The notes under the pieces: model-generated
The model's database searches: none
Told to the model about the DNA's origin: nothing
The model's input: only the letters and a program-made list of their open reading frames with translations
Shown here: positions 27,768 through 29,905 of the stretch, in pieces
How positions within the stretch are numbered: the first letter of the stretch is position 1
How the letters are laid out: every line of letters begins with the position of its first letter
Position numbers and translations under genes: made by a program
Assembly (NCBI GenBank): GCA_036261915.1
Contig: DATAJX010000001.1
Coordinates: 83,875-147,874, forward strand
Source: Alphaproteobacteria bacterium
GTDB lineage: Bacteria > Pseudomonadota > Alphaproteobacteria > UBA2136 > UBA6156
Length of the DNA: 64,000 nucleotides
Direction: 5' to 3'

Positions 27768-28166
27768 TCAATCTATCCTGTTAATTTGTTTCAGCCAGTC
27801 GAAGATCAACACGGCGGCCCCGCCCACGCGCGGTCGGTCGGCATGGCCAAGCCACGCCATGTCGTCTATCTCGCTCGCGGGTTTCAGCACGCCGGTGTAA
27901 TCGCCGCCGTAGCAGGCAATGCGCACCAGCGTGCCTTCAGGCTTGCCGTGGGCCTGCGCTTCAAAGGTGTCCAGGTACTCCAGGTTCTCCGGCGCCAGTT
28001 GCACGTTCAGTTCTTCACCGATTTCGCGCACCAGCGCCTGCTGGTCGGTTTCACCGGCCTCGCGCTTGCCGCCCGGAATATAGTAAACCTGCTGGCCGCG
28101 GCTGCGCACCATCAGCACGCGGCGGTTCTCCACCCGCAGCCAGCCCAGCTTATCAATGCTCGCCAT
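27768..28166 (-). CDS. NUDIX hydrolase
   Basis: NUDIX box GGKREAGETDQQALVREIGEELNV (Gx5Ex7REUxEE); start ATG overlaps the stop of the upstream RbcL-like gene (TAATG). Confidence 0.8.
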   Translation of the reverse strand: MASIDKLGWLRVENRRVLMVRSRGQQVYYIPGGKREAGETDQQALVREIGEELNVQLAPENLEYLDTFEAQAHGKPEGTLVRIACYGGDYTGVLKPASEIDDMAWLGHADRPRVGGAAVLIFDWLKQINRID

Positions 28167-29905
28167 TACGCGTCGTCCTCGGGTTCGTCATCGTCCTTGC
28201 GCGGCGCAAACGGCTTGATGTTATCCGGCTTGGGGGCAGGGAAGGTCTGCACCTCGCCACCGGTGGCCTTGCCCACGCCGGGGTTGGTGCCGGTCCCGCC
28301 AATCACACCGAACAGGAACGCACCCTCGTGCCAGTGGTCCAGCGCGGCCTTCAGCTCGGGGCAATAGCGCGCGGCCTTGCTCAAAATGGTGCGGCCTTCC
28401 ACGGCCAGGCTCACACCCTCGTTACGGGCCTGAACCAGCGCTTCAATGGCGGTACGGTTGGCAATGGCACCGGCCTGGCTGCCCCAGGGGTGTCCCATGA
28501 TGCTGCCGCCACATTGAATGACCACATGGTCGCCCATCGCATCGATCAGGCGGGGGAAGTGCCACGGGTTGTGCCCGCCGCCCACGGCCGGAATGGCCGG
28601 GTTCAACCCATGGAAAGGCTGGCTCACATAGTGCCCGGTGTCGGGCGCAGCCTGCACCAGGTCGTCGCGCAACGCGGCCATCACGCCGCTCACCTGGCGG
28701 CGGTTGGTCACGCTGCCGCGCAGCGGGCTGGCGGTGCTCACCATGTCGCAACCGGCCCAGCGCAACAGCTTGGCATGCAACTGTTCGCTCATCATGTCGC
28801 CGCTCAGGGCGCGGCCGCCCATGGCGCACAGCACCATCTCGTTCTTGCGGCACCACTCGGTCAGGCTGTGCAATGCGGCCCAGCCAATCGCCACGCTGTC
28901 CACCATCACCATGGCCATTTCCATGTCCTTGGCCCACAGCGCGCGCTCCAGCATCAGGTCAACAGTGGGTGCGGTAATATTGCAGGCATGGCTTTTAAAC
29001 TCATTGGTCTCGCGCATGGCGGCATGGGCGGCTTCTGCGGCGTACCTGAAGCGCTCGCGCCAGCCGTTGGTGGGTATGCTGTGCAGCAAAACCGGGTCGG
29101 CGCAAAAATCGGCCCCGCCCACCAGGGCCTCGTACACCGCGCGGCCATATTGACGGGCACTCAACCCCTGCATGGGGCGGATGGTACAGCTCATCAGCGG
29201 GCGCCCGTGCTTGTTCATGGCATCGCGCAAGCCGCGCACGCCAAAGGCCGGGCCGCGGAAGGTCCGGGCCAGCAGTTCCGGCAATCTAATATCCATCAGC
29301 CGCGCGCCGGTGCCGGTCAGCGCCGCGCTCACCACGCTCAGCACGCCGGGCACGCTGCCGCCTTCAATCAACAGGTGGGGCACCAGCAGGTGCAGCCGTA
29401 TCCGGCGCGGGCCCACGGTCTCGGCATGGGTCACGGCGGGCTGCGGCTGGGTCGGGTCGGCATATTCCTGCGTCCAGCTGTCCACCCATACGCCTTGCAT
29501 GGCGCTGCTTATCAGCTTGCTGGCGCTGGCGGGGGTGTGGTCCGTATCGGCCAGTTCCAGCACGGCGGTTAAAGCGGTCTCCGGGCTCAGCACGGCCGAA
29601 GCCCCGCCACCCACCACCGGCACATTATCCGCCTGCGGCGCCACCAAACTGTCCAGCGGCACCCCCAGCGCCCGGGCGATCTTCACCACGCTGCCAAAAC
29701 CGGGGTTGGTATGCCCGCTCAATATCCGGCTCAGGCTGGCCATGCTCACGCCACTGGCCCGCGCCAGCTCGGCCGAGCTCATGCCCTTGCCCGCCAACAA
29801 TTCCTTAATAACGTCGCCCAAGTTTTCCGAATGTATCATGTTGCGTTTATGGAATACCCCTTGCAAATACGCAACCAAAAAACCGCCTTTTCCGGCAAGT
29901 CTCAT
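28166..29905 (-). CDS. HTH(XRE)-RuBisCO large-subunit-like fusion protein (non-canonical active site)
   Basis: Residues ~25-85 are an XRE-type HTH ([40 protein letters not shown]). The rest aligns with the RbcL N- and C-domains ([105 protein letters not shown]). The catalytic K175/K177/K201/D203/E204/H294/H327/K334 equivalents are replaced. Real start may be the internal ATG ~29839 (MIHSENLGD...). Confidence 0.8.
   Translation of the reverse strand: [579 protein letters not shown]

Follow-up and report, generated by a model that had tools for sequence, protein, structure and literature searches.

A RuBisCO large subunit stripped of its catalytic residues and joined to a DNA-binding head: a candidate autoregulated transcription factor in uncultured Proteobacteria

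No enzyme of carbon fixation has been studied more than RuBisCO, and the question raised here is what its large subunit may be doing when it is encoded behind a DNA-binding domain and has lost the residues on which its chemistry depends. The case is a single gene on a stretch of 64,000 nucleotides (the window; NCBI GenBank assembly GCA_036261915.1, contig DATAJX010000001.1, positions 83,875 to 147,874 of the forward strand), and all positions below are counted from the first letter of the window unless a related locus is named. An earlier note on this DNA, made from the letters alone, had read the gene as an XRE-type helix-turn-helix (HTH) fused to a full-length RuBisCO large-subunit (RbcL)-like domain with an ablated active site, and had proposed that the RuBisCO fold was repurposed there as a ligand-sensing or scaffolding module of a transcription factor. 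In the following we describe the fusion and its relatives, the state of its former active site, its place beside the known RuBisCO forms, and the DNA and genes around it. On balance, and with a confidence slightly on the favourable side of even, we read the locus as encoding a one-component transcription factor that regulates its own gene and that would sense and oligomerise through a catalytically dead complex of large (L) and small (S) subunits derived from form I RuBisCO. The XRE-type HTH would be its DNA-binding head, and the dead large subunit with a dedicated small subunit would be its body.

Architecture and family of the fusion gene

The open reading frame (ORF) of the earlier note, 28166..29905, exists as a maximal frame of 579 codons and lies on the minus strand, which the note did not give; its start is more likely to be internal. 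The start codon is very probably Met23 (ATG at 29839), because the NCBI record P0001, with 100% identity to the window protein, is 557 amino acids (aa) long, because the orthologue in locus L001 (83% identical) has an in-frame stop 7 codons 5' of the equivalent methionine, and because the N-termini of the homologues line up at this residue. The gene would then span 28166..29839 on the minus strand, stop codon included, and encode 557 aa, and the 22 codons upstream would be 5' regulatory DNA.

Both parts of the proposed fusion are recognised by profiles within this one ORF, as the earlier note had claimed. In the numbering of the 579-aa frame, Pfam HTH_3 (XRE type) matches aa 33-86 with an E-value of 2.5e-13 and 50.3 bits, against a gathering score of 23, and Pfam RuBisCO_large matches aa 223-525 with an E-value of 6.9e-62. 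The top NCBIfam model is that of form I RbcL, PRK04208 (aa 126-532), at 319 bits, which is below its cutoff of 438 bits, and the other models score less: 197 bits for form III, 94-110 for MtnW and 82 for form II, with the MtnW and OiaX models at 110 bits or less. None of the curated NCBIfam models covers the fusion family, and the names given to its members in the databases are generic. By sequence, the nearest PDB chains are those of form I ancestors obtained by reconstruction (7qsw) and of RbcL from cyanobacteria. Since Pfam, NCBIfam, PDB and Foldseek searches all lead to RuBisCO_large or form I RbcL, the C-terminal part of about 490 aa does not belong to another family of TIM barrels, an alternative that the earlier note had raised against itself.

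An AlphaFold2 monomer model, computed from a 23-sequence family alignment, has a mean predicted local distance difference test score (pLDDT) of 82.8 and consists of an HTH head, a disordered linker, a complete RbcL fold and a disordered tail. Foldseek superposes it on form I RbcL with a template modelling (TM) score of 0.89 and a root-mean-square deviation of about 2.0 Å over about 435 aligned columns, at 36% identity, and the TIM barrel, whose integrity the earlier note had left to structure prediction, is intact in the model. Along the 557-aa protein, the HTH domain takes up aa 1-66 (29642..29839, minus strand, as are all parts of the gene) and is predicted as a five-helix bundle of high confidence (helices within aa 7-66, pLDDT about 83-92). 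Its recognition helix is at least 90% conserved across the family, and residues S32, A34, L36, S37, R38, I39, L40 and G42 of the domain are invariant or nearly so. The linker that follows, aa 67-88 (29576..29641), is variable, without a consensus residue in the 23-sequence alignment, and is predicted to be disordered (pLDDT below 50 at aa 69-80). The full-length RbcL-like module, delimited by profiles, model and Foldseek, comprises the N-domain and the TIM barrel at aa 89-502 (28334..29575), and the C-terminal tail, aa 503-557 (28169..28333), is again predicted to be disordered (pLDDT about 35, disorder at aa 510-557). In most family members this tail holds a short semi-conserved motif, G-x-V-(I/L)-P ... 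(T/K)-P-F, followed by an acidic end, an arrangement suggestive of a short linear motif for interactions; the C-terminus of RuBisCO itself latches loop 6. Opposite the fusion gene runs an antisense ORF of 414 aa (28328-29572, plus strand); long antisense ORFs also lie opposite other genes and are a usual by-product of the 61% GC content, not supported as genes.

The fusion is not an isolated case. A word-indexed search found 77 protein clusters with the HTH_3 plus RuBisCO_large architecture, at 41-100% identity and drawn from NCBI, JGI, ENA and Logan assemblies, and 26 species-representative genomes carry the gene, all of them metagenome-assembled genomes (MAGs); other such fusions, which the earlier note had recommended looking for, are therefore at hand. 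The matches that come after these clusters are ordinary form I RbcL at 38-40% identity, and an exhaustive representative search returned no intermediates between the two groups. One divergent subclade (L023, L026 and L034, at about 41% identity) is labelled Magnetococcales/UBA2136. Given the continuous ORF in all 77 clusters, a frameshift or chimera joining two adjacent genes, the other doubt of the earlier note, was rejected.

The former active site and the position of the family among RuBisCO forms

Residues of the former active site were numbered on spinach RbcL, used as a ruler sequence and aligned with 85 database relatives; the ruler has K, K, K, D, E, H, H and K at positions 175, 177, 201, 203, 204, 294, 327 and 334, and all eight bona fide form I references in the same alignment are canonical at every listed site. 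Against these references the window protein has the substitutions K175R, K177M, K201A, D203P, E204V, H294M, H327S, K334G and S379G, among which are all those that the earlier note had listed. The same residue classes replace the catalytic set (K175, K177, K201, D203, E204, H294, H327 and K334) in 77/77 fusion clusters. Position 175 is Arg, 327 Ser and 379 Gly without exception; 201 is Ala or Cys in 75, 203 is Pro in 76, 294 is Met in 73 and 334 is Gly in 75 of the 77, and position 204 is Thr or Val. Kept, on the other hand, are D202, R295, T173, W66 and the glycine pairs G380/G381 and G403/G404, which form the phosphate cradle of RuBisCO.

As far as we know, the reactions that have been characterised in the RuBisCO superfamily all depend on Mg2+, with carbamylated K201, D203 and E204 as its ligands, and on K175 as the base. 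Because the carbamate lysine, the Mg ligands and this base are gone, carboxylation or enolisation of the known type would be excluded by established RuBisCO enzymology, and the fusion protein is almost certainly not a carboxylase. The pocket does not look like that of a gene in decay: within the fusion family, the 22 columns homologous to the RuBisCO active site have a median entropy of 0.26 bits versus 1.32 bits for the other 408 RbcL columns (Mann-Whitney p 7e-4; p 2e-4 for the C-domain alone). Since these columns are nearly invariant, the alignment indicates a pocket that is remodelled and under purifying selection rather than decayed. An artefact or a decaying pseudogene, whether an assembly or frameshift chimera or the relic of a dead RuBisCO, would account for the unusual architecture and for nothing else, and has a practically negligible probability: the continuous ORF recurs in clusters from separate assemblies and in 26 species-representative loci, the replaced residues are invariant and the model is confident.

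A constrained pocket might also be that of an enzyme. In such a case the RbcL-like domain would catalyse new chemistry on a phosphorylated substrate without a metal, with the HTH repressing its own operon, as a trigger enzyme for which BirA, PutA and NadR are parallels. The strong purifying selection on the pocket is in keeping with this, as are the polar residues that do not vary in it (D202, R175, R295, S327 and, newly acquired, H423/N424) and the small enzyme genes found in the operon according to lineage, namely NUDIX, glyoxalase and nucleotidyltransferase genes. Set against it are the loss of K201, D203, E204 and K175 in 77/77 clusters, the replacement of K334 of loop 6 by Gly, and the lack of conserved pathway neighbours in the loci compared, and we hold a trigger enzyme to be unlikely, though well worth bearing in mind. 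The reading of the pocket as the sensor site of a one-component regulator is the one pursued below.

The position of the family was assessed by a bootstrapped neighbour-joining (NJ) tree of 81 full-length representatives (397 columns, 200 bootstraps). The fusion family was monophyletic in 200/200 replicates, and so were the sampled form I sequences, green, red and deeper ones together (200/200). The two groups joined each other in 190/200 replicates, and the fusion family was never nested in form I, long-branch effects being possible in a tree of this kind; a group made up of the fusion family and the green-type references alone appeared in 0/200. Identities agree with this picture, at 37-44% to most form I references, 25-33% to two divergent red-type ones and 31% or less to any non-form-I group. 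As judged from these alignments, the family is a form-I-related lineage, its sister as far as NJ shows, and not a form IV RuBisCO-like protein (RLP); membership of form IV was rejected on the MtnW/OiaX scores of at most 110 bits against 319 for form I and on the grouping with form I in the tree. Taken with the small subunit described below, the sister position suggests that catalysis was lost secondarily, in a lineage of the form I side.

The earlier note had contrasted the fusion with form IV RLPs, which it held to retain the Mg/carbamate site in general. This stands for most of the distant full-length representatives, which keep K201/D203/E204 where the fusion family keeps none, and does not stand for several other lineages among them, which in a fast alignment are also non-canonical at 201/203/204; loss of this site may therefore not be unique to the fusion family. 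The note's further statement that no RLP is described with a DNA-binding domain agrees with the open-access literature that we searched, in which we found none, and in which we also found no description of an HTH-RbcL fusion or of a non-carboxylating clade bearing a small subunit.

The candidate operator, the small-subunit partner and the genomic setting

A candidate binding site for the head is present near its own gene. A 14-bp pseudo-palindrome, TT(C/G)CA-N4-TG(C/G)AA (TTSCA-N4-TGSAA; for example TTCCATATATGCAA), recurs 5' of the fusion gene and was first spotted by eye in the 220 bp upstream of 25 orthologues. The exact motif has 10 matches in 8 of these upstream regions versus 0.02 expected from shuffles, and with up to one mismatch there are 24 matches in 16 loci versus 0.55 expected. 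When all gapped 5-Nx-5 words were enumerated, the top word was TTCCA-N4-TGCAA, in 8/25 loci, and in 200 shuffles the top word at N4 spacing reached at most 3 loci. The exact motif has a density of 1.8/kb in the upstream regions versus 0.011/kb elsewhere in the loci (about 160-fold), and of the 22 exact matches that the loci contain over about 430 kb, 18 fall at the 5' end of the fusion, after correction of a few start codons. It occurs in either orientation, at -15 to -114 from the fusion ATG, and in many loci (L002, L003, L006, L009, L011 and L016) in two copies 17-21 bp apart.

The window also holds two copies, each with one mismatch. The proximal one, 29841..29854 (minus-strand sequence TTCCATAAACGCAA), ends 2 nt before the ATG, and the distal one, 29861..29874 (minus-strand sequence TTGCGTATTTGCAA), lies 20 bp from it. 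The likely operator at 29841-29874 is thus inside the ORF of the earlier note and not in the region 29906..30017, where that note had looked for it. The conserved recognition helix of the HTH fits a conserved operator, and the sites may overlap the promoter, as is typical of autorepressors; from this comparison of sequences we consider it rather likely that the fusion protein binds DNA and autoregulates. Just upstream of the two copies, within the 22 extra codons, stands a weak terminator-like hairpin with a T-run (29883-29898, minus strand, TTGCCGGAAAAGGCGG TTTTTTGG), which may act in attenuation, may insulate against the divergent outer membrane protein (OMP) gene, or may be there by chance. 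In L012, L013 and L019, the words common to the upstream regions of the fusion are, by eye, tRNA-derived in appearance, and the window has a tRNA-Met gene on the far side of the divergent OMP gene (30685-30761, minus strand).

The motif might be a promoter element and nothing more, in which case the HTH would bind elsewhere or serve, for example, a protein-protein contact. In the window, TTGCGT and CATAAA lie within the two copies at a distance of 17 nt, like -35 and -10 boxes, with the ATG 6 nt further on. A promoter element would hardly require that both halves of the palindrome be conserved, or tolerate either orientation over a range of about a hundred positions, and the near absence of the motif from about 350 other gene upstream regions of the same loci speaks against a general promoter consensus, so that we regard this explanation as quite improbable. 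A regulon of the putative autoregulator within the window was also considered and rejected: the motif count over the window is at chance level, and no further targets can be named.

The second component of the putative regulator is a gene for a protein like the RuBisCO small subunit (RbcS), already suspected in the earlier note and real by profile: it encodes 113 aa at 27422..27763 (minus strand) and matches Pfam RuBisCO_small with an E-value of 3.4e-19 and solved RbcS chains of the PDB with an E-value of 8.5e-17. Such a gene lies downstream of the fusion in at least 23 loci (L001, L003-L022, L024, L029 and L031), and in 23 orthologues its N-terminal ETF..LPP motif, of the ETFSYLPPL type that contacts RbcL, is at least 90% conserved. 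The YW..W core is kept as well, the loop insertion being variable, and the RbcS-like proteins make up a separate subfamily of 43 clusters, many of them sharing contigs with the fusion. In the window, the fusion stop codon overlaps the ATG of a NUDIX hydrolase gene (TAATG), which is followed after a 9-nt gap by the RbcS-like gene, in the tight packing of an operon. We hold it to be probable, with some assurance, that the fusion protein pairs with the RbcS-like protein. A terminator-like hairpin with a T-run (27300..27321, minus strand), about 100 nt after the RbcS-like stop, is a plausible end of the operon, in a consensus scan whose number of sites equals that of chance.

The retained small subunit also bears on a reading without any ligand, in which the RbcL-like and RbcS-like proteins would form a pure scaffold, an oligomer from L2 to L8S8 presenting many HTHs as a multivalent architectural or nucleoid-associated particle. 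In form I RuBisCO the small subunit glues L2 dimers into L8S8, and two operator copies about two helical turns apart, a position in the core genome and vertical inheritance would all suit such a particle. A scaffold would not, however, place the strongest conservation of the domain at the positions of the former active site, nor hold the phosphate-binding glycines and R295 invariant, and its sites would be expected to be scattered rather than concentrated at one promoter (18/22). We consider it improbable, and return to the regulator with a sensing pocket.

The NUDIX gene (132 aa, 27768..28166, minus strand; Pfam NUDIX, E-value 1.1e-11) was considered as an integral third component and rejected: among the loci compared only the window and L001 have it, and other lineages have something different there or nothing. 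We infer that it is a lineage-specific passenger of the operon. Guest genes stand where the fusion adjoins the RbcS-like gene in the window (27768-28166), L004 (9645-10010), L007 (2174-2710), L022 (1622-4031) and L031 (9615-10355), and these are unrelated between lineages: NUDIX, glyoxalase/VOC, a nucleotidyltransferase with further genes, a membrane protein, and a protein of 246 aa without Pfam match. Downstream of the RbcS-like gene, L020 has a NADAR gene; NUDIX and NADAR are both tied to ADP-ribose/NAD metabolism. As clues to a ligand, NADAR, TauE, peptidase S51, a Na/Ala symporter and membrane proteins were considered among the neighbours, and none was consistent; the neighbourhoods that were looked at showed no cbb genes. 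In one sublineage the RbcS-like gene is followed on the same strand by a gene for a membrane protein of about 154 aa (L004 10754-11302, L005 10762-11226, L006 6493-6957 and L007 3403-4035; maximal ORFs of 182 aa in L004 and 210 aa in L007; the L006 copy without Pfam match), which could be co-transcribed with the fusion module. In the divergent subclade (L023 5960-9581, L026 5918-9578 and L034 462-4024), the fusion always comes after a polytopic membrane protein of 631-634 aa, of which the L034 copy is without a precomputed Pfam match. Downstream of the fusion, L023 has three tandem paralogues of 261-262 aa beginning MPLPKNDPHA (9904-12526, minus strand), and L026 has a different gene of 279 aa in that place.

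In many loci the module is syntenic, in the order proS ... fusion-rbcS-like gene ... glmM-ftsH. The nearest relatives of the window FtsH (65-85% identity) are from MAGs only, many of them on fusion-bearing contigs, and the FtsH of cultured bacteria (Betaproteobacteria) stands at about 60-63%; an assignment of the host to Micavibrio found no support in any named match. Because of this housekeeping position and of the congruence with the host lineage seen through FtsH, we take the host to be a lineage of Proteobacteria not yet in culture, which NCBI labels 'Alphaproteobacteria bacterium' and within which the module is inherited vertically. Between glmM and ftsH the window has a gene for a DUF4379 treble-clef zinc-finger protein of 167 aa (24416-24919, minus strand), found also in L006, L007 and L021, and between glmM and the RbcS-like gene there is an ORF of 270 aa (26369-27181, plus strand) without a Pfam, NCBIfam or PADLOC match and not present in related loci. 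An HTH of this type could also belong to an anti-phage defence or toxin-antitoxin module, in which an effector is joined to an XRE antitoxin or regulator. In PADLOC the HTH matches capH and other HTH models weakly and the NUDIX protein matches the candidate PDC-S07, all of them generic matches, while the RbcL-like and RbcS-like parts have no match; the module is moreover syntenic among housekeeping genes and tracks the host phylogeny, rather than lying in a variable island. This explanation was rejected as very improbable.

Proposed mode of action and relation to known systems

Taken as a one-component regulator, the fusion protein would form dimers by the L2 contacts of RbcL, and the RbcS-like subunit may link such dimers in the manner of L8S8. 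The HTHs, on flexible linkers from the L2 or from a higher L-S assembly, would bind the palindromes in pairs, and so repress or tune the promoter of their own operon and probably other targets too. A small molecule of negative charge, plausibly a sugar or an acid that carries phosphate, would bind without metal in the former ribulose bisphosphate (RuBP) pocket at the L-L interface; the ligand is proposed to be anionic because R295 and the glycine cradle are retained and new Arg/His residues have appeared, and that it is a phospho-sugar is a tentative suggestion. In true RuBisCO the N-terminal segment packs over the closed active site and takes part in closure. In the fusion, closure of the pocket driven by the ligand could be relayed through the N-terminal linker to the geometry of the HTHs, changing their affinity for DNA. 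In its boldest form, to which we give a little less than an even chance, a whole holoenzyme of the RuBisCO type (L and S, possibly L8S8) would have been turned into an allosteric transcription factor, with the RuBP site as a metal-free sensor and the inherited closure of loop 6 and N-terminal tail driving the DNA-binding heads, and it would represent the first non-carboxylating lineage to have arisen on the form I side, which bears the small subunit, and not among form IV proteins. The conserved, replaced pocket and the upstream pseudo-palindrome lend support to the earlier proposal of a repurposed sensing or scaffolding module.

Several points weigh against this interpretation. What is said of DNA binding, of the oligomeric state and of a ligand is inference. 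Neither the HTH nor an adjacent RbcS is absolutely obligatory in the family: the divergent subclade of L023, L026 and L034 has no adjacent RbcS-like gene, and P0087 (L033 382-1845, a single 1.8-kb contig) has the altered pocket without an HTH, beginning with a short basic peptide and having no HTH ORF in the 380 bp upstream. The conserved polar residues of the pocket, D202, H423, N424, H427 and H450, may leave space for residual catalysis. No conserved metabolic neighbour hints at the ligand, the guest genes being heterogeneous. As regards the operator, the evidence is comparative, both window copies carry one mismatch, the count of the motif over the whole window (10 versus 9.7 expected) is that of chance, and its spacing resembles that of -35 and -10 boxes, so that part of the signal could be promoter.

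Should the interpretation hold, bacterial one-component regulators would gain a new class of sensor module, and the family would offer a natural experiment both on the roles of the small subunit beyond the support of carboxylation and on the re-tuning of the RuBisCO pocket to other ligands, with a bearing on RuBisCO evolution and engineering. According to a recent survey, all true rubiscos form one clade apart from the non-carboxylating RLPs (PMC13454268). The fusion family breaks this one-clade picture, being a lineage on the form I side that has kept the small subunit, dropped catalysis and gained a DNA-binding domain.

Among known systems, the family joins two kinds, the pseudo-enzymes of the RuBisCO superfamily and the one-component regulators with an enzyme-derived sensor. 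With form I RuBisCO (RbcL8RbcS8), in its green types IA/IB and in the reconstructed ancestors (PDB 7qsw, 1rbl and 6hbc), it has in common the two-domain fold of the large subunit at 36-44% identity, a downstream small-subunit gene with an N-terminus of the ETFSYLPPL type, the phosphate-binding glycines and R295, and it is its sister in the NJ tree. It differs in the replacement of all catalytic residues and Mg ligands, in the added N-terminal HTH and linker and the disordered C-terminal tail of about 55 aa, and in a score under the NCBIfam form I cutoff. The form IV RLPs, such as the 2,3-diketo-5-methylthiopentyl-1-phosphate (DK-MTP-1-P) enolase MtnW and OiaX, likewise have a RuBisCO fold without carboxylase function, whereas the fusion falls outside their clade, has the Mg/carbamate residues replaced and is accompanied by an RbcS-like partner; we know of no form IV protein with a small subunit or a DNA-binding domain. 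In the RbcS-like (SSUL) modules of CcmM and other carboxysome linkers, which cross-link active RuBisCO, a RuBisCO subunit fold is re-used non-catalytically as well, but it is there the small-subunit fold alone, while the fusion locus keeps the pair of L and S and it is the enzyme itself that is inactivated. There is a functional likeness with one-component regulators and trigger enzymes (ROK NagC/Mlc, RpiR-SIS, SorC/CggR, BirA, PutA and NadR), in which an HTH is combined with the fold of a metabolic enzyme as sensor, and autoregulation passes through a palindromic operator at the own promoter, for which the fusion has a candidate. To our knowledge no RuBisCO-type sensor module has been described before, and in the fusion the sensor would be a RuBisCO large subunit with an accessory small subunit, potentially a 16-mer.

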